Origin: Escherichia phage HMD-9
Length of the DNA: 64,000 bases
Reading direction: 5' to 3' (one strand)
Sequence record: PV287714.1
This document shows positions 308 to 42,663 of this stretch, piece after piece (position 1 is the first letter of the stretch; each line of letters begins with the position of its first letter). Below the pieces are notes generated by a model that was not told the origin of the DNA, did not search any database, and was given only the letters and a program-made list of their open reading frames with translations. A program made the position numbers and the translations under genes.

Positions 308-1873
308 ATGACTATCAAAACTAAAGCTGAACTTTTGAACAAATGGAAGCCATTACTGGAAGGTGAAGGTTTACCGGAAATTGCTAATAGCAAACAAGCG
401 ATTATCGCTAAAATCTTTGAAAACCAGGAAAAAGATTTCCAGACAGCTCCAGAGTACAAAGACGAAAAAATCGCTCAGGCGTTCGGTTCTTTCTTAACAG
501 AAGCTGAAATCGGTGGTGACCACGGTTACAATGCTACTAACATCGCTGCAGGTCAGACTTCTGGCGCAGTAACTCAGATTGGCCCAGCTGTTATGGGTAT
601 GGTACGTCGTGCTATTCCTAACCTGATTGCTTTCGACATTTGCGGTGTTCAGCCGATGAACAGCCCGACTGGCCAGGTATTCGCACTGCGCGCAGTATAC
701 GGTAAAGACCCGGTCGCTTCCGGTGCTAAAGAAGCATTCCACCCAATGTATGGTCCAGATGCAATGTTCTCTGGTCAGGGTGCTGCTAAGAAATTCGCTG
801 CTTTGAAAGCAAGTGATACTCTTGAAGTTGGAACTATTTACACCCACTTCTTCCAGGACACTGGTACTGTGTATCTGCAAGCTACAGAAGTTAAGCAAAT
901 TGATACTAGTGCAACTGACGCAGCTAAATTAGATGCTGAAATTAAGAAACAAATGGAAGCTGGTGTACTGGTAGAAATCGCTGAAGGTATGGCTACTTCT
1001 GTCGCTGAACTTCAGGAAAGTTTCAACGGTTCTACCGATAACCCATGGAATGAAATGGGCTTCCGTATCGATAAACAAGTTATCGAAGCTAAATCTCGCC
1101 AGCTGAAAGCTGCTTACTCTATCGAATTAGCACAAGACCTCCGCGCTGTTCACGGTATGGATGCTGATGCTGAACTGTCTGGTATTCTGGCTACAGAAAT
1201 CATGCTGGAAATTAACCGTGAAGTTGTTGATTGGATTAACTACTCAGCTCAGGTTGGTAAATCTGGTATGACCCTGACTCCGGGTTCTAAAGCTGGTGTA
1301 TTTGACTTCCAGGATCCGATTGATATTCGTGGTGCTCGCTGGGCGGGTGAATCCTTTAAAGCTCTGTTGTTCCAGATTGACAAAGAAGCAGTTGAAATTG
1401 CTCGTCAGACTGGTCGTGGTGAAGGTAACTTCATTATCGCTTCCCGTAACGTAGTTAACGTTCTGGCTTCAGTTGATACCGGCATTTCTTATGCTGCACA
1501 GGGTCTGGCTACCGGCTTTAACACTGATACTACCAAGTCAGTATTTGCTGGTGTTCTGGGTGGTAAATACCGTGTATATATCGACCAGTATGCTAAACAG
1601 GATTATTTCACTGTAGGTTATAAAGGTCCGAACGAAATGGATGCTGGTATTTACTATGCTCCATATGTAGCTCTGACTCCGCTGCGTGGTTCCGATCCGA
1701 AGAACTTCCAACCAGTAATGGGATTCAAAACTCGTTACGGTATCGGTATCAACCCATTTGCAGAATCCGCTGCTCAGGCTCCGGCTTCTCGCATCCAGAG
1801 CGGTATGCCTTCTATTCTGAATAGCCTTGGTAAAAACGCTTACTTCCGCCGTGTATATGTTAAAGGTATCTAA
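308..1873 (+). CDS. 23: major capsid protein gp23
   Basis: 521 aa; sequence recognised as T4 gp23 (MTIKTKAELLNKWKPLLEGEG...). Confidence 0.97.
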   Translation: MTIKTKAELLNKWKPLLEGEGLPEIANSKQAIIAKIFENQEKDFQTAPEYKDEKIAQAFGSFLTEAEIGGDHGYNATNIAAGQTSGAVTQIGPAVMGMVRRAIPNLIAFDICGVQPMNSPTGQVFALRAVYGKDPVASGAKEAFHPMYGPDAMFSGQGAAKKFAALKASDTLEVGTIYTHFFQDTGTVYLQATEVKQIDTSATDAAKLDAEIKKQMEAGVLVEIAEGMATSVAELQESFNGSTDNPWNEMGFRIDKQVIEAKSRQLKAAYSIELAQDLRAVHGMDADAELSGILATEIMLEINREVVDWINYSAQVGKSGMTLTPGSKAGVFDFQDPIDIRGARWAGESFKALLFQIDKEAVEIARQTGRGEGNFIIASRNVVNVLASVDTGISYAAQGLATGFNTDTTKSVFAGVLGGKYRVYIDQYAKQDYFTVGYKGPNEMDAGIYYAPYVALTPLRGSDPKNFQPVMGFKTRYGIGINPFAESAAQAPASRIQSGMPSILNSLGKNAYFRRVYVKGI

Positions 1874-4852: not shown

Positions 4853-5983
4853 TTATGGATAAGTATAGATGATACCAGTTTCTAAAGCAGTTTTATGAAT
4901 GATGTATCCATTACGTGATTCTTGAACATCAACTTCTGGATAATCTTGAATCATCTTCTGAAGAGTGTAACGATGCAGGTAATATTTACTATCTGGGTCG
5001 TCAGTTTTCCAATCTTTACCTTCTTCGGTCATTTTTTGGATTTCATCCATAACCCACCAACCGCACCAGATGTAAGCTGAAGTACGATGTGGAAGAGGAT
5101 GAACATAAGGTAATTCACCTTCTGGTTCTGGAGCAACTTTATCAGTTACCTGAACTTGACCTGTTGCTGTAATAGTTTTGCTATCATAATCAGCAGCAGT
5201 AACAGTTGCAGTAACTTCAATAGTTTGACTTCCAACAGATGAAGTATCAACTGTATATACATTAGTTGACTCTTCTACAGTAGAAGAATCTTTCTTCCAC
5301 GAGTAAGTAATTTGTGCTTCTTCTGGAGCATCAGTAACATTAGCAGTAAATGTAGCCGAAGCATCTTGTTGAACGTTAATAGAAGGAGGAGTCAATGTAA
5401 CCTGTGGATTCATTGTCTTCTTATTAACCGTTAATGACACTTCATTAGAAGTAACGCTTAGTGCATCATAATCTGTCGCGGTTACTTGAGCTACACACTT
5501 GATTTTTTTAACTCCGCTTGTGGTAGGAGTGTAATTGAATGTAGCGCTAGTTGCTTCGTCCACAGGAGAATCATCTACATACCACTGATACGTAGCAGAT
5601 GCTCCATCAGGTTGAGAAGCTAAGGCAGCAGTAAATTGAACTGGGGTTCCGATTACTCCAGCGTCAGGGTTATCAGGAGTTACAGCCAATGTAGTTGACT
5701 GAGTTTTATTTTTAACTGTGATAGTTGTTGTCGCTTCAGCCGTTTCCGGGCCTCCTTCAGAAAGTGTATTTGTTGCAACAACTTTAATTGTTTTTGTTCC
5801 AGCAGGTCCTTTTAGTACATAACTAAAAGTTGCTTCAGCCCCATCTTGTAGAACATCATCTACGCTCCAAGCATATGTAATAGTTCCACCTTCAGTTTGA
5901 CCACTGGGTGCAGCAGTAAACTGCTCGGTTTCATCAATAACCCCCGTTGGTGTTTTAGGAGTTATATCAACTGTAAAAGTCAT
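4853..5983 (-). CDS. hoc: head outer capsid protein Hoc (Ig-like domains)
   Basis: 376 aa, Thr/Ser-rich tandem Ig-like segments, T4 Hoc size and position. Confidence 0.92.
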   Translation of the reverse strand: MTFTVDITPKTPTGVIDETEQFTAAPSGQTEGGTITYAWSVDDVLQDGAEATFSYVLKGPAGTKTIKVVATNTLSEGGPETAEATTTITVKNKTQSTTLAVTPDNPDAGVIGTPVQFTAALASQPDGASATYQWYVDDSPVDEATSATFNYTPTTSGVKKIKCVAQVTATDYDALSVTSNEVSLTVNKKTMNPQVTLTPPSINVQQDASATFTANVTDAPEEAQITYSWKKDSSTVEESTNVYTVDTSSVGSQTIEVTATVTAADYDSKTITATGQVQVTDKVAPEPEGELPYVHPLPHRTSAYIWCGWWVMDEIQKMTEEGKDWKTDDPDSKYYLHRYTLQKMIQDYPEVDVQESRNGYIIHKTALETGIIYTYP

Positions 5984-5992
5984 AAGTTATCC

Positions 5993-6673
5993 TTATTTTA
6001 ATGTTACGAAAGAAGAATTGCGTGTTTCACGAATTAAAACTGATCCGTCACGGTTAATGTAATAAATTAAGCTAAATAAAGTTTGGTGTGCTGACGCATG
6101 CTCAAAACTTGTTGGGTGAGATTTCCAATCCGGAGTTTCAGCAATCCATTGATAAATCCACCAAGGAACAGTACAGAATCCTGGATTTTTTCCAATCAGC
6201 TGAAGATTCGGGCTAAAGTTTTCCGGAAGAGTAAATACAGACGGCTTTTCAGATTCAATAATCTCAGCTACAGCTTGCTCGAATTTTTCTTCAACAAAAG
6301 GAGTATCTTCAATCAAAACATCGGTATTTTCGGGAATTTTATCCGTTTCGACTACTTCAATTTTAATGTCAGATTTAACCGGAGAATCAATCAGAAGTGC
6401 TGCCTCTGGATTGACTTCTTCATCGTCATATTTTAATCCGTCTGCGGCATCAGCAGCATCAATTAAGTCTTTAATAGATAACCCATCAGTCTCTGGCATA
6501 GGTTCACTAGCGAGCTTCTGGAGGGCTTCTTCAATATCATTAACGATATTATCAAAAGATTTATTCTTTTTGACCTTTATACCAAACTGTTCAGCATATT
6601 CAGCTAATTTAGCTTTAGCTTCTTTATTATCATCAAGAGCCTTCAGCTCTGCAATATAATCTTTATCTATCAT
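5993..6673 (-). CDS. inh: inhibitor of prohead protease Inh
   Basis: 226 aa, position between hoc and segD as in T4. Confidence 0.85.
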   Translation of the reverse strand: MIDKDYIAELKALDDNKEAKAKLAEYAEQFGIKVKKNKSFDNIVNDIEEALQKLASEPMPETDGLSIKDLIDAADAADGLKYDDEEVNPEAALLIDSPVKSDIKIEVVETDKIPENTDVLIEDTPFVEEKFEQAVAEIIESEKPSVFTLPENFSPNLQLIGKNPGFCTVPWWIYQWIAETPDWKSHPTSFEHASAHQTLFSLIYYINRDGSVLIRETRNSSFVTLK

Positions 6674-31290: not shown

Positions 31291-32877
<1,587 letters not shown>

Positions 32878-32884
32878 AATAAAA

Positions 32885-32900
32885 TGGGCCTTGCGGCCCA
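32885..32900 (-). terminator. hairpin between nrdB stop and denA start (terminator and split Shine-Dalgarno element)
   Basis: TGGGCC-GCAA-GGCCCA followed by TTTTATT; AAGGAG lies 5' of the hairpin. Confidence 0.45.
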
Positions 32901-32904
32901 CTCC

Positions 32905-34083
32905 TTAAAAGTATTTTTTAAAACTCATCATAACTTTATCATCAACATCATTATCAATCTGTGCTACAAGATAAGATGACAGTTCTACTTCTTGCGGTGC
33001 AGATTGAACATTATCAGAATTAAGATATTCACGAATCCAAGGATACGGATGTTTAACCGGAGCATCGGTAATTGGACATGGAAGACCACACTGTTTCATA
33101 CGAGATACAGTTAAGTAATCAATAAAGCTCCACATGCTATTTGTATTTAATCCAGGAACATCGCCATCTTTAAATAAATGAACTGCCCAATCTTTTTCTT
33201 GGCGGTTAACTTCCATGAAAATATCAACTGCTTCTTGTTCACACTCTTGAGCAATTTTAACCCATTCATCGCCATCAGTACCGGATTGAAGTTGACGAAT
33301 AATATATTGAGTGCCTTTAAGGTGAAGCTGCTCATCACGAGCAATGAACTTCATAATCTTGGCATTACCTTCCATGATTTCCATGTTTTTGTGGAAGTTA
33401 AATGTACAGGCGAAAGATACATAAAAACGAATAGCTTCCAATGCGTTGATTACATGAAGGCAGAGGTAAAGAGATTTCATTAGCGCTCGTTTAGCTTCGG
33501 CTTCTTGTTTAATAGCTCGATTTAAACGAAAATCAGCATCAGGAGATTCTTTAGCTAGTTCTACGAATTCTTTAGCATTTTCCCATTCACGGGTCTTCTT
33601 AAGAACATCATCGTAGTAGCGACCAATGGACTCGGCACGTTTCATAATATCTTCATCTAATACAATCTCATCAAATACCTTTGACGGATCAGTATAAAGA
33701 TTTCGCATAATATGAGTGTATGAACGACTGTGAATAGTTTCGCTAAAAGTCCATGTAGCAACCCATGTATCAAGACTTGGGTCTGAAATTAACGACATAA
33801 GTACAGCAGACGGTGCACGACCCTGAATGCTATCTAGAAGTGATTGATACTTCAGGTTATTAGTAAAAATATCTTGCTGATACTGAGGAAGCTTGTTAAA
33901 TTGTGCAGCATCCATCATCAAGTTTACTTCTTCCGGACGCCAGAAAAATGACAAAGACTTCTCAATAAGTTCTTCAAATACTCGATGCCGTTGAATATCA
34001 TATCGAGCTAAACCCAATCCAGAACCAAAAAACATCGGCTCAGTCAAAATATTAACAGGTGATGTATTAAAAACAGTACTCAT
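32905..34083 (-). CDS. nrdB: ribonucleotide reductase beta subunit, uninterrupted
   Basis: 392 aa continuous ORF with diiron-site residues; no intron. Confidence 0.95.
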   Translation of the reverse strand: MSTVFNTSPVNILTEPMFFGSGLGLARYDIQRHRVFEELIEKSLSFFWRPEEVNLMMDAAQFNKLPQYQQDIFTNNLKYQSLLDSIQGRAPSAVLMSLISDPSLDTWVATWTFSETIHSRSYTHIMRNLYTDPSKVFDEIVLDEDIMKRAESIGRYYDDVLKKTREWENAKEFVELAKESPDADFRLNRAIKQEAEAKRALMKSLYLCLHVINALEAIRFYVSFACTFNFHKNMEIMEGNAKIMKFIARDEQLHLKGTQYIIRQLQSGTDGDEWVKIAQECEQEAVDIFMEVNRQEKDWAVHLFKDGDVPGLNTNSMWSFIDYLTVSRMKQCGLPCPITDAPVKHPYPWIREYLNSDNVQSAPQEVELSSYLVAQIDNDVDDKVMMSFKKYF

Positions 34084-34721
34084 TTAGAATCCTTAAATTT
34101 ACATTTATCATAATGCCATCTTAAAGCATTACCTTTATTAACTTTCTTTCCACAATGCGGACACGGCGGATACTCTGCACCTTGTTTAGTTCTCAAAGAA
34201 ATCAAATCGCGGGTTTCTTTAGTATGAGGAACATCTCTCGTTGGAGAGATTGTACCATACATTGGATTAAGCACGCCGACTTTAGCAGCAGCTATATTCT
34301 TTTTAGCTTCTTCAGTTTTAGGTTTTCTCATGCGAGCTAAATGCTCTTTAGTAAATTTCCTTCCTTTAAGAGCTCTACTTATCTTTTCTCTGGTTTCTAT
34401 AGAAACTTCACGTCCTATAGCAGCTCCAGACAAACGTCGTCTACCTAATTCGTATAGTTGAGAAGAAATTTTATATGAGCGATTTTTACCAGTCAAGCAC
34501 ATTAAACCAAAAGCTTTCTTTAATCCCGGGGTGTCATATATTTTACATAAAAGCCAATGCGCTATAAAATGCTCTCTACCTGTTAATTCAACTAAATTTT
34601 CTTTATCATCAGAACCTCCCATACATCTAGGGATTATATGATGAGTCTCTTTATATCCTAATAAAGGTTCCCGGGTTTGTGCCCGGGAAATTAAACTGTT
34701 ATATACGTTTTGATAATTCAT
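34080..34721 (-). CDS. mobE: HNH homing endonuclease MobE
   Basis: 213 aa; HNH motif HHIIPRCMGGSDDKENLVELTGREHFIAH; inserted between nrdA and nrdB with overlapping start/stop. Confidence 0.85.
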   Translation of the reverse strand: MNYQNVYNSLISRAQTREPLLGYKETHHIIPRCMGGSDDKENLVELTGREHFIAHWLLCKIYDTPGLKKAFGLMCLTGKNRSYKISSQLYELGRRRLSGAAIGREVSIETREKISRALKGRKFTKEHLARMRKPKTEEAKKNIAAAKVGVLNPMYGTISPTRDVPHTKETRDLISLRTKQGAEYPPCPHCGKKVNKGNALRWHYDKCKFKDSK

Positions 34722-37542: not shown

Positions 37543-37854
37543 TTACACCGCCATTTTTCCTTTAATAGGAGGGTGTGATTCGTAACCTTTAAGAACGAAA
37601 TCTTTAGGCCTGAGTTTAAGAATGTATTCCAATTGTTCTTTAGTAGAAAGATAACGGAATTTATAAGGCAATCCGCCTATTACCAGTTCACAAAGCTCTT
37701 TAGGTTCACGACGCAAAATTTCTTTACATTGTTCTACGTGATTCATATAGATATGAGTATTACCGCCAGAAAATATCAAATCTCCTGGAATAAGATTACA
37801 CATCTTAGCTACAATATGAACCAACGCAGCATATGATGCAATGTTGAATGGAAG
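37543..37854 (-). CDS. td: thymidylate synthase, exon 2
   Basis: Encodes LPFNIASYAALVH...; joins exon 1 to give 286 aa; the track's leading M is the intron 3' ATG. Confidence 0.93.
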   Translation of the reverse strand, partial: LPFNIASYAALVHIVAKMCNLIPGDLIFSGGNTHIYMNHVEQCKEILRREPKELCELVIGGLPYKFRYLSTKEQLEYILKLRPKDFVLKGYESHPPIKGKMAV

Positions 37855-38108
37855 CATTATGTTCAGATAAGGTCGTTAATCTTATCCCGGAATTATATCC
37901 AGCTGCATGTCACCATACAGATCAGACTATATCTCCATCTTGATGAAGCAAGATGTCTATCGTTTCGAGTCACTTGACCCTACTCCCCAAAGGGATAGTC
38001 GTTAGGCATTTAGTTCAAAAGAACATTTAGCACGGGATTGTCTACTAGAGAGGTTCCCCGTTTAGATAGATTACAAGTATAAGTCACCTTATACTCAGGC
38101 CTCAATTA
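37855..38108 (-). ncRNA. group I self-splicing intron in td, ORF-less (no I-TevI)
   Basis: 5' end TAATTGAGGCCTGAGTATAAGGTGACTTATAC..., 3' end ...CTGAACATAATG; exon 1 ends in U, intron ends in G; 254 nt, no ORF. Confidence 0.9.
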
Positions 38109-38657
38109 ACCCAAGAAAACATCTACACTTCTTTGGTACCATTGTAAATCAAGATAACCATTACGCACATTAAACTGATAGAACATATGACAGGGCGGTA
38201 ATGCCATTTGATTGATTTCAGCTGGATTCCATGCTGAAACGATTTGACGTCGATCAGTTGGTAATTTTTTAATACGATCAATAGTTTCAACTAATTGATC
38301 CACACCACCGAAATCACGCCATTGTTTACCGTATATAGGACCAAGTTCACCACTATGATATCCTAGGTCTTTAGCCTGGTTTTCATAGTTATCGTCCCAA
38401 ATAGTTTTACCTTGAATAAGACTACCATGAGTGCGAAGACGTAAATCATTAACATTGGTAGAACCGGAAATAAACCATAGAAGCTCAGCAATGCAAGCTT
38501 TCCAAGCGAGCTTCTTAGTCGTTACTGCAGGAAAACCTTTAGTTAAATCCCAGCGTAATTTAGTACCGAACAAAGCAATTGTTCCTGTGCCTGTTCGGTC
38601 ATCGGTTTCATAGCCATTTTCAAAAATGTCTTTAATTAAATCTTGGTATTGTTTCAT
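38109..38657 (-). CDS. td: thymidylate synthase, exon 1
   Basis: 183 codons ending QRSVDVFLG; the track's stop is the first 3 nt of the intron. Confidence 0.93.
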
Positions 38658-38676: not shown

Positions 38677-38705
38677 ATAATACATTTTATGAAGCTAATA
38701 ATCAA
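38677..38705 (-). promoter_or_regulatory. sigma70-like promoter upstream of td
   Basis: Minus strand TTGATT - 17 nt - TG-TATTAT, about 20 nt upstream of td ATG. Confidence 0.4.
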
Positions 38706-39061
38706 TACGGTTTAGCATCAAATTTTCTTTCAATTTCAGGCGTAAAATACAATTCTTTACCACGCTTGGAAAAGCGACCAATAATATGATAATTATTCTC
38801 ATCAAACGTGATATTGCCGATATCCATAGCTTTCAACCAAATATCGATATTTCTGTCAAGCTTTATATCAAAATTCCAATACGGAGAATTATTACCAAAA
38901 ATACTACAAGCGGATTCAGTGAAACAACTGCTATAAATCTTGTCTTTAGGAACTACTAATTGATAGACGCCTTTAATAAACTGAGGACCCTGCCATTTTG
39001 GTTGTTTCGCGTCTTTTTCTAATAGAATAGGGTAATAATTAAAGTTCATATTTTCCGCCAC
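38702..39061 (-). CDS. hypothetical protein between td and frd (lineage-specific candidate)
   Basis: 115-119 aa; probable ATG at 39049; no recognisable family; frd and td are adjacent in T4 as I recall. Confidence 0.65.
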   Translation of the reverse strand: MAENMNFNYYPILLEKDAKQPKWQGPQFIKGVYQLVVPKDKIYSSCFTESACSIFGNNSPYWNFDIKLDRNIDIWLKAMDIGNITFDENNYHIIGRFSKRGKELYFTPEIERKFDAKPY

Positions 39062-39069
39062 GTGTTATT

Positions 39070-39896
<827 letters not shown>

Positions 39897-41001: not shown

Positions 41002-41910
41002 TTAAAGGTCATTCAAAAGGTCATCCAGGTCCGTGTCATCAGCACTAGATGAACTGCCAGAGCTTGAGCTCATAAAATCATCTTCAGTTTTTGTTTTGAA
41101 GTCATCAACATTGAATGCATCCAAATCATCAGCAACTTTATCGGCTTTCTTGGCAGCAGTTGCTGCGGCACCACCCATAGCAGCAGTTCCCATAACTTGA
41201 CTGAACTTAGTGCTCAGTTCTTCAAACGATTTGAATTTATCTTTAGAAGTCATTTCAGAAAGGTCAACCATTTGTTCGAACAGTTCTTTCTGGAAAGATT
41301 CATCATCAATGTTTGGAATCGCAGATTGATTCAGGAATTTAGATTCGTCGTAGTTACTAAAACCAGAAACTTGTTTAACTTTCAGTACAAAGTTAGCACC
41401 TTCCCACGGACAAGTTACATCAACCGGAGTTTCACCCATTTCAACATCAACTGCAATCATTGCATTGATTTTATCCCAGATTTTCTTACCGAAACGGTAT
41501 TTAAATACTTTACCTTCATTTTCTGGAGCAGCTGGGTCTTTTACTACAAGAATGTTAGCCCAGTAAGAAATTTTACGTTTAACAAGACCGTACTCTTTAT
41601 TGTCAGTATTATACAAATCATTTTTACTGATGTACTGACATACTGGACAAGAATCGTAATCACCGTGGGTAGATGAACATGTTTCAATATACCATTTACC
41701 ATTTTTCTTGAAACCGTGATTTACAAGAATTGCGAACGGTGCTTGTTCATCATTTTTAGACGGAAGAAAACGAATTACTGCTTGACCGTTACCCGCATTG
41801 TCGAGTTTCAGTTTCCACTCGCCTTTATCTTCAGAAGAAAAACCACCTTTATTTCCAGCCAGTTTAGCCATTTGTGCAGCGAGTTCAGCAGTAGATTTAC
41901 GTTTAAACAT
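41002..41910 (-). CDS. 32: single-stranded DNA-binding protein gp32
   Basis: 302 aa; zinc-binding H..C..C..C region, acidic C-terminus. Confidence 0.96.
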
Positions 41911-42009: not shown

Positions 42010-42663
42010 TTAATACTTACAAGATTTCACAGTTTCAATAAAAACACTTTTAGCTTTCTGTGAATCAATATTTAAAATTTTTCTATAAGCCTTTAACTTT
42101 ATAGAATAATTATTCCAGACTAAATTATCAGTCTGTTCATCATGTTTATCAATTATATTTAAAAACGAATCAAGCAAGATAAACGTCTCAAACGAAATTA
42201 TATTCGATTGAAGTAGTTTAAAAATATAACTTGATTGAACTTTTGGATTATACTCAAAGATTTCTTTAAAAGCAGAAACTTCAACTTTTTTACTAAAATA
42301 ATAAATGTTGCGAATATCTTCTTCAAACTTAAATTTAATTTGCTTTAAGCGTCCGATATATTCACGATAAAACACAAGTGCATCAGCGTCAGAGATGTCA
42401 CCAATCCAAGCATCTTGGTTAGCAACAAGATTGCTTATAAAGATTAAAGCAAGTTCCTTTAATTTATATTTTTCTGATAACTTCTGGAAAAAATACTTAT
42501 CCCTTCGCTTTTGATAAGCGGCATCAGACACCCGCATGCACCAATTATACTTAATTACATCATACTTTCCATTCATATGTTGTTTTATCATTAAGTATAA
42601 TTTATAAACTGATTTACCATCAATGTATCTTTCACCACCAGCAGGCATGCGGAGTTTAATCAT
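42010..42663 (-). CDS. 59: helicase loader gp59
   Basis: 217 aa, position. Confidence 0.9.
   Translation of the reverse strand: MIKLRMPAGGERYIDGKSVYKLYLMIKQHMNGKYDVIKYNWCMRVSDAAYQKRRDKYFFQKLSEKYKLKELALIFISNLVANQDAWIGDISDADALVFYREYIGRLKQIKFKFEEDIRNIYYFSKKVEVSAFKEIFEYNPKVQSSYIFKLLQSNIISFETFILLDSFLNIIDKHDEQTDNLVWNNYSIKLKAYRKILNIDSQKAKSVFIETVKSCKY

Follow-up and report, generated by a model that had tools for sequence, protein, structure and literature searches.

The thymidylate synthase gene (td) of phage T4 is interrupted by a group I intron, of subgroup IA2 by literature classification, which together with its endonuclease, I-TevI, is the textbook bacterial mobile intron. In the td gene of the Escherichia phage analyzed here, 254 nt separate the two exons, and an earlier note on this DNA had taken them for the T4 td intron without its homing-endonuclease gene. 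The locus raises the questions of whether such a short intron is still a working ribozyme, how it came to be without I-TevI, and whether it can still move. We addressed these questions in a 64-kb window of the phage genome, the window being the whole stretch of DNA that was analyzed.

The td gene and its interruption

The window belongs to a Tequatrovirus (93-95% identity to deposited genomes over 22 kb), and its gene order nrdA, nrdA.1, nrdA.2, td, frd, gene 32 is the same as that of T4. The td gene and the parts of its intron were located as follows, with the basis of each assignment in brackets where it was recorded:

38657..38109, minus strand: td exon 1, 549 nt, codons 1-183, 3′ end CTTGGGT (ORF, translation)
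38108..37855, minus strand: td intron, group I (td-type), 254 nt, with no homing-endonuclease ORF (Rfam, T4 alignment, helix model)
37854..37543, minus strand: td exon 2, 312 nt, comprising 103 codons and the stop (ORF, Pfam)
38106..38108, minus strand: in-frame TAA formed by intron nt 1-3 (read from the sequence; ORF 38106..38657)
38094..38100, minus strand: internal guide sequence GCCUGAG, intron nt 9-15, forming P1 with exon CUUGGGU, with U.G at the 5′ splice site
37925..38070, minus strand: catalytic core P3-P4-P5-P6-P6a-P7-P7.1-P7.2-P8, intron nt 39-184 (MFE fold, pair model)
38000..37995 and 37930..37925, minus strand: the strands of P7, in a pseudoknot with P3
38024..38013, minus strand: P6a mini-hairpin GUUC-UUUU-GAAC, intron nt 85-96, 4 bp and a UUUU loop
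37866..37920, minus strand: 3′ peripheral helices P9, P9.1, and P9.2, intron nt 189-243 (MFE fold, pair model)
37855, minus strand: terminal G at the 3′ splice site, ...CAUAAUG/CUUCC, as in T4

The intron begins with TAATTGAGGCCTGAGTATAAGG (from 38108) and ends with CTGAACATAATG (to 37855), and the CTTGGGT that makes up the final 7 nt of exon 1 is the 5′ strand of P1. When joined, the exons encode 286 aa, of which 265 are identical to T4 Td, and the product matches the Pfam family PF00303 (Thymidylat_synt) over positions 1-266 of the 266 in the profile (E 7.9e-96). Both exons had been described in the earlier note as intact and joining to a 286-aa protein across 254 nt, and its coordinates, ends, and product were all correct. 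The expected ligated junction would read ...CTTGGGT/CTTCCATTC..., that is, ...GTTTTCTTGGGT/CTTCCATTCAAC.

Because the intron opens with an in-frame TAA, unspliced RNA would give just a 183-aa N-terminal fragment. The gene itself is under purifying selection, with 70 synonymous and 22 non-synonymous codon changes relative to T4 and mostly synonymous changes relative to other phages of the group as well. This indicates that td is in use and that splicing is required.

Comparison with the T4 td intron

Relative to T4 (NC_000866.4, in which the td intron is about 1016-1017 nt), the window intron consists of nt 1-84, identical at 84/84 positions, a 12-nt stretch, GTTCTTTTGAAC, and the last 158 nt, identical at 151/158; the alignment thus confirmed that its ends are those of the T4 td intron, as had been read from the sequence. 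The 12 nt stand in place of a 774-nt T4 segment that comprises the P6a stem, the I-TevI ORF, and the leader and regulatory sequences of that ORF, and the T4 P6a stem, UGUAGGAC...GUUCUACA, is wholly missing. The peripheral loop that carries I-TevI in T4 is indeed reduced to a short hairpin, as previously proposed, with a GUUC/GAAC stem of 4 bp and a UUUU loop (38024..38013). At the 242 shared positions, seven differences were found, none of which breaks a helix:

P8: compensatory A-U to U-A swap
L8: two loop bases
between P7 and P9: one junction base
P9: C-G to U.G
P9.2: G.U to A-U

The two introns share the gene, the insertion point after the GGT of Gly183, the guide sequence, helices P1-P9.2, and the in-frame TAA, and the exons have the same lengths in both phages (549 and 312 nt). 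They differ in that T4 has I-TevI in P6a, whereas the window has the 12-nt hairpin and no homing means of its own. The window intron is an ORF-less allele of the T4 td lineage and not the canonical mobile form.

Integrity of the ribozyme

The presence of a group I intron in td was established by Rfam as well as by the T4 alignment. Specifically, RF00028 (Intron_gpI) matched 38118..37903 on the minus strand over its full model (1-253 of 253) at 72.7 bits (E 1.6e-16), the gathering score being 50 bits, and this was the sole Rfam match within the 64-kb window. The nrdB gene is one uninterrupted 392-aa ORF (32905..34083, minus strand), and with no second Rfam group I intron in the window, we conclude that the td intron is present and the nrdB intron absent.

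An explicit model of the td intron comprised 14 helices and 73 pairs (P1, P2, P3, P4, P5, P6, P6a, P7, P7.1, P7.2, P8, P9, P9.1, and P9.2), in which the published G78-C865 pair (PMC2729099) served to anchor P6. All 73 pairs are standard in the window intron. Explicit pair counting across 10 distinct td-lineage alleles gave 99.6% of cells paired, compared with 30-41% when the 3′ partners were slid by 1-3 columns in the same alleles. Changes on both sides were seen in seven pairs, located in P6a, P8, and P9.2, and the observed values were reached in 0/500 shuffles; P9.2 of SEA1 has two double compensatory changes. Across the 10 alleles every cell pairs in P3, P4, P5, P6, P7, and P8, the P3/P7 pseudoknot included, and P1 is likewise 100% paired, with U(-1).G9 at the splice site. 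Since most core pairs are invariant among such close relatives, the support for the core is chiefly its identity to the studied T4 ribozyme. An unconstrained MFE fold recovered P2-P6a, P7.1, P7.2, and P8-P9.2, with a modest z of -2.3, and missed P1 and P7, the latter because pseudoknots are not representable in it. All 14 helices of the P1-P9 fold that a td intron should adopt can therefore form, and the conserved group I core is present.

Variation at the guide sequence was observed in relatives. In RPN226 (locus L007, about 1636..1665) the 5′ exon reads CTTAGGT and the guide GCCTAGG, versus CTTGGGT and GCCTGAG in the window; the G-to-A change in the exon turns a P1 G.U into A-U, and the guide changes keep standard pairs as well. 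HP3 has the RPN226-type guide variant with the ordinary exon, and there too standard pairing in P1 is preserved.

Constructs of td with a shortened P6a self-splice in vitro (PMC2729099). Laboratory td derivatives from which the ORF has been removed or in which P6a has been cut back are the usual constructs in studies of the td ribozyme. They are similar to the window allele in length (~250-270 nt), in their small P6a stem-loop, and in keeping the core. They are unlike it in that the window allele is natural and occurs in several wild isolates, and in that its GUUC/GAAC stem is unrelated to that of T4. Judged by its sequence, the td intron is most likely a competent self-splicing ribozyme. The 254-nt RNA would fold after transcription into the td ribozyme (P1-P9.2) and would excise itself by the usual two-step reaction, which a free guanosine initiates; the joining of the exons would then turn a frame that stops at the intron TAA into full-length thymidylate synthase. 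Overall, we consider it highly likely that this is a functional T4 td-type group I intron allele without an endonuclease gene.

It is very improbable, in our assessment, that the intron is instead a dead, non-splicing remnant and td a pseudogene. Nothing direct speaks for such a state, apart from E. coli thyA, by virtue of which td is not strictly essential. Against it, all helices are intact and the substitutions relative to T4 keep pairing or affect loop or junction bases, both exons have uninterrupted frames of full length with mostly synonymous substitutions, and the allele is unchanged in independent isolates from China and Poland.

Distribution and length classes of td introns

The td region matched 753 phage records in GenBank. 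In near-identity mode the td intron was matched in 273 records, of which about 37 have shortened forms of 250-445 nt. Escherichia phages N2 (from China) and 236Ecol005PP (from Poland) carry the 254-nt intron with 100% identity; it was also identical in SP21535 over the part present in its record, and 97.6% identical in CJY920. In such records td is annotated as two separate CDSs. The length classes and the content of the P6a slot in each were as follows:

250 nt: SEA1 (Salmonella phage, Gelderlandvirus), P6a slot GUUC-GAAA-GAAC
254 nt: window, N2, 236Ecol005PP, and CJY920, P6a slot GUUC-UUUU-GAAC
254 nt: Salmonella phage GRNsp7, P6a slot CAGC-AGUA-GCUG
262/263 nt: CE1, PD112, 215Ecol030PP, and BYEP01, T4 P6a stem with a short loop cap
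315-320 nt: HP3 group, at least 15 phages, 3′ end of I-TevI kept
445 nt: e11/2, G28, F1, FN, and FL18, I-TevI internally deleted
1016 nt: T4, WL-3, RPN226, and others, full I-TevI cassette

The 445-nt, 315-320-nt, and 262/263-nt forms make the decay of I-TevI by deletion directly visible in the td lineage. Retention of the ribozyme with loss of the endonuclease is predicted by the homing-endonuclease life cycle (PMC5009752, PMC2988022). Like the window intron, the td introns of e11/2 and of the HP3 group and the T4 nrdB intron, in which I-TevIII is truncated, have kept the ribozyme and lost the endonuclease (PMC5009752, PMC2988022, PMC2790892); however, those introns have kept recognizable endonuclease pieces, whereas the window intron has lost them all, along with the stem flanking the ORF in T4.

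The 254-nt sequence is already in public databases, and both the element and the phenomenon are known. Natural ORF-less td alleles were undescribed in the literature searched, outside which lies the survey of Sandegren & Sjoberg 2004, and the 254-nt td allele is apparently undescribed. That survey is said to be the key one on T-even introns and the likeliest to describe such alleles. A 2010 review credits each of the three T-even introns with an endonuclease gene of its own (PMC2993671).

Variation in the P6a slot and recombination within the intron

All td variants share the layout UAAAU-cassette-UAAAU, and the slot was found in at least five states, namely the I-TevI cassette, the T4 stem alone, GUUC-UUUU-GAAC, GUUC-GAAA-GAAC, and CAGC-AGUA-GCUG. 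SEA1 has the GUUC/GAAC stem of the window in the same slot, with the loop GAAA. The GRNsp7 core differs from that of the window at 1/242 positions, and its P6a hairpin (L010 1585..1596, CAGC-AGTA-GCTG) at 9/12 bases. The GRNsp7 hairpin is still a 4-bp stem with a tetraloop and has the same 12-nt length, amounting to a clean cassette replacement. No donor of either the GRNsp7 or the window hairpin was found in the sibling introns, the window, or the fetched loci.

A scan of IMG/VR for CCCGTGCTAAAT-N(4-34)-TAAATGCC returned 71 sites in 64 stretches, from many phages and genes. These sites held 49 distinct cassettes, 47 of which form a terminal stem of 4 bp or longer; the expectation from shuffled sequences was 1.4/49, and the highest count in 1000 shuffles was 6. 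The family thus normally carries a short hairpin at P6a, and the I-TevI-bearing P6a is derived. The IMG/VR scan returned relatives only and no exact td allele, and a metagenome scan with a td-specific cassette pattern gave 0 matches. The related IMG/VR phage introns are like the window intron in their conserved P4/P6 and J6/7 and in having a UAAAU motif on each side of a 4-9-bp P6a hairpin; unlike it, they are in other genes or at another td position, are 67-77% identical overall, and do not represent the same insertion.

One IMG/VR sequence, L043 (IMGVR_UViG_3300027859_000006), was considered as an ancestral ORF-less ortholog and rejected, its insertion site being 21 nt (7 codons) upstream of that of T4 and its guide sequence its own. 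The L043 intron (reverse strand, about 5790..6050) is ORF-less, ~266 nt long, and 74.6% identical, and it belongs to the same family. The td of L043 has 50-60% aa identity, its exon 1 ends ...MWHQR and its exon 2 begins SVDVFLG..., and the guide sequence matches; its P6a stem is T4-like, TGTAGAAA-GCTT-TTTCTACA. The introns of Bacillus thymidylate synthase genes presumably also occupy a site 21 bp from that of T4. Additionally, ORF-less introns that are 72-74% identical to the td intron over ~220 nt were seen outside td in T4-like coliphages: in G2285 (MK327933.1, 30906..31118) the DNA polymerase gene is affected, and PSD2002 (OK335775.1) is another phage with such an intron. The td ribozyme therefore has relatives in more than one gene across these phages.

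The mini-hairpin, T4-stem-only, and I-TevI cassettes each occur with both 3′ haplotypes (T4-like and WL-3-like P8/P9), which indicates recombination within the intron. Among 12 Tequatrovirus alleles, the largest number of differences was 11/242 in the core, compared with 138/549 in exon 1 and 105/312 in exon 2. The window core showed 0/242 differences from N2, 236Ecol005PP, and the full-length WL-3 intron, and exon 1 differed at 75/549; going outward from the intron, the first exon differences from N2 were met 10 nt upstream and 9 nt downstream. Relative to SEA1, the exons differed at 275/861 positions and the intron by ~10%. Near-identical cores between diverged exons imply that the core is homogenized or exchanged much faster than td diverges and that cassettes are shuffled on it. 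An inversion of the hairpin loop was tried as a relation between cassettes and set aside: the window cassette equals the reverse complement of that of SEA1 with 1 mismatch, versus 4 in direct orientation, a weak hint from four informative bases.

Origin of the mini-hairpin allele

The earlier note had left the choice between an ancestral ORF-less ribozyme and loss of the endonuclease with splicing retained. This pair covers the plausible options, and deletion is seen in relatives, but the loss alternative does not hold in its simple form for this allele. A k-mer search for GTTCTTTTGAAC in the T4, WL-3, RPN226, e11/2, and HP3 introns recovered just chance 6-8-mers. With the hairpin present in no full-length intron and the T4 P6a stem missing, the allele is not a simple deletion product, and an origin by single deletion was rejected.

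A longer route by loss would have an I-TevI intron become fixed, its endonuclease lose selective value and be deleted, and the stub later be remodelled to a small hairpin with the same function. Deletion intermediates in close relatives are consistent with such a course (the 445-nt forms of e11/2, G28, and F1, and the 315-320-nt forms of at least 15 phages in the HP3 group), as are the 262/263-nt forms of CE1, PD112, and BYEP01, which retain the T4 P6a stem alone; the window core, at 0/242 differences from full-length WL-3, is equally compatible with recent loss followed by remodelling of the hairpin. However, no single deletion of any full-length intron gives GTTCTTTTGAAC, the longest common words being chance 7-8-mers, and the T4-type P6a stem is entirely gone from the window. 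Moreover, SEA1, of another genus, has the GUUC/GAAC stem in its td intron, and in GRNsp7, whose core is 1/242 different, the slot is filled by a third hairpin, the 12-nt CAGC-AGUA-GCUG, which is unrelated. We regard this route as possible, though on balance we doubt it.

From the evidence of 12 nucleotides, we lean instead toward a separate ORF-less cassette lineage over a fresh I-TevI deletion. This lineage, whose stem is shared with SEA1, would have recombined with I-TevI introns inside the conserved core.

Endonuclease genes and mobility

The longest ORFs overlapping the td intron are 31-32 aa, and a tblastn search with T4 I-TevI of the whole 64-kb window (~100 kb of the genome lies outside) gave a best E of 0.32. 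A search of the same 64 kb with the free-standing I-TevI-like protein of N2 gave none better than E = 0.32. The intron therefore carries no I-TevI ORF, as had been claimed (tblastn E at least 0.32, intron ORFs at most 32 aa), and the search beyond the intron, within the 64-kb window, revealed no I-TevI-like gene. The following ORFs resemble endonuclease genes:

34080..34721, minus strand: mobE-like HNH/NUMOD3 ORF, 213 aa, beside nrdB; counterpart of T4 mobE
32467..32901: denA-like GIY-YIG ORF

The N-terminal 127 aa of the mobE-like ORF are 57% identical to T4 MobE (HNH + NUMOD3; PHROG 655, homing endonuclease), and the C-terminal 83 aa, read in the same frame, show 100% identity to T4 NrdB.1. 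It looks like either a mobE-nrdB.1 fusion or a MobE variant reading through into nrdB.1. No segG-like gene was found between gene 32 (41002..41910) and gene 59 (42010..42663).

Relatives have an endonuclease gene close to td. Specifically, N2 (L002 2324..3055, minus strand) and RPN226 (L007 3228..3959, minus strand) encode a free-standing 243-aa GIY-YIG protein, the N-terminal ~100 aa of which closely resemble I-TevI. In both phages the gene takes the place of nrdA.1, with nrdA.2 on one side and nrdA on the other, on the opposite strand and ~0.3 kb downstream of td; in the window, this slot is held by nrdA.1 (DUF4326). In N2, the GIY-YIG gene and the ORF-less td intron, which is the same as that of the window, possibly constitute a collaborative-homing arrangement.

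Lacking I-TevI, the intron is unable to home by itself, and an endonuclease in or beside the intron, as defines a homing intron, was not found within the 64 kb. Its spread would be vertical, by ordinary homologous recombination in co-infection, or by copying with I-TevI from another phage.

Mobility through an endonuclease encoded elsewhere (collaborative, or trans, homing) nevertheless has a precedent in the T4 nrdB intron, which has a defunct I-TevIII and is mobilized by MobE (PMC2790892), and free-standing endonucleases have been predicted to serve introns that lack one (PMC2993671). Consistent with this, N2, with its identical intron, and RPN226 have the free-standing I-TevI-like gene near td, and the exons on either side are much less conserved than the intron core. 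In the window, however, no such gene is present, nrdA.1 being in its position, and the only nearby homing-endonuclease-like gene is the mobE-like HNH ORF by nrdB, the gene on which T4 mobE acts (PMC2790892). Furthermore, the exon differences from N2 start 10 nt upstream and 9 nt downstream, nearer than the I-TevI cleavage site, so that the co-conversion tract expected of direct I-TevI-type homing between these backgrounds is missing. We take that cleavage site to be at -23/-25. Continued mobility in trans is thus decidedly unlikely in our view. The gene 43 intron of Aeromonas phage 25 and the cyanophage psbA intron are likewise short, ORF-less, and in a conserved phage gene (PMC2993671), but they are served by free-standing endonucleases, whereas none was found in this window.

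The neighborhood of td varies among these phages. A 119-aa ORF with a GTG start (38702..39061, minus strand) separates frd and td in the window, unlike in T4, where the two genes overlap directly; it belongs to PHROG 1928 (function unassigned there) and has no Pfam match. The same ORF is present in N2, HP3, 236Ecol005PP, and WL-3 (94-96% identical), and CE1, GRNsp7, and BYEP01 have a different, 68-aa ORF between frd and td. Such variable flanking genes could limit the homology available for intron transfer. In addition, an 81-aa ORF without a Pfam match (39651..39896, minus strand) lies between frd and frd.1, where the T4 gap is 71 nt, and the e11/2 annotation includes a similar ORF upstream of frd.

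Predicted immunity to I-TevI and the homing cycle

The intron splits the I-TevI recognition site across the exon junction, so that the I-TevI of co-infecting phages should not cut this td allele, an expectation of immunity that draws on established knowledge of I-TevI. The cleavage motif in exon 1 (38120..38137, minus strand) reads TAC CAA AGA AGT GTA GAT in the window and TAT CAA CGC TCA GTA GAT in T4. Both encode YQRSVD, the Arg and Ser codons having switched six-fold families, and CNNNG is kept as CAAAG. At least five synonymous versions of this stretch exist among the relatives, and these variants might reflect selection to escape or to keep I-TevI cleavage.

A more far-reaching reading, which we offer tentatively and hold to be unlikely, is that the P6a slot between the UAAAU motifs is an exchangeable cassette site, with at least five states on near-identical cores in all 3′-haplotype combinations. 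The mini-hairpin allele would then be a long-lived I-TevI-resistance allele that crosses genera (Tequatrovirus, Gelderlandvirus) and bears no endonuclease cost, rather than a decaying remnant. If this were true, the mini-hairpin td allele would represent resistance to a gene drive.

The 254-nt allele is a natural minimal td ribozyme, and it holds a lesson for annotation in that td is deposited as two CDSs in such genomes. Natural td alleles without a trace of I-TevI mean that the stages of invasion, degeneration, and loss all co-exist in present-day coliphages, as introns that are full length, internally deleted, reduced to a 3′ remnant, reduced to a bare stem, or furnished with a mini-hairpin. 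The understanding of group I introns and homing endonucleases is unchanged by this finding. Unsurprising as it may be to the specialist, the polymorphism of P6a cassettes, together with every stage of decay, is a tidy natural illustration of the homing cycle.
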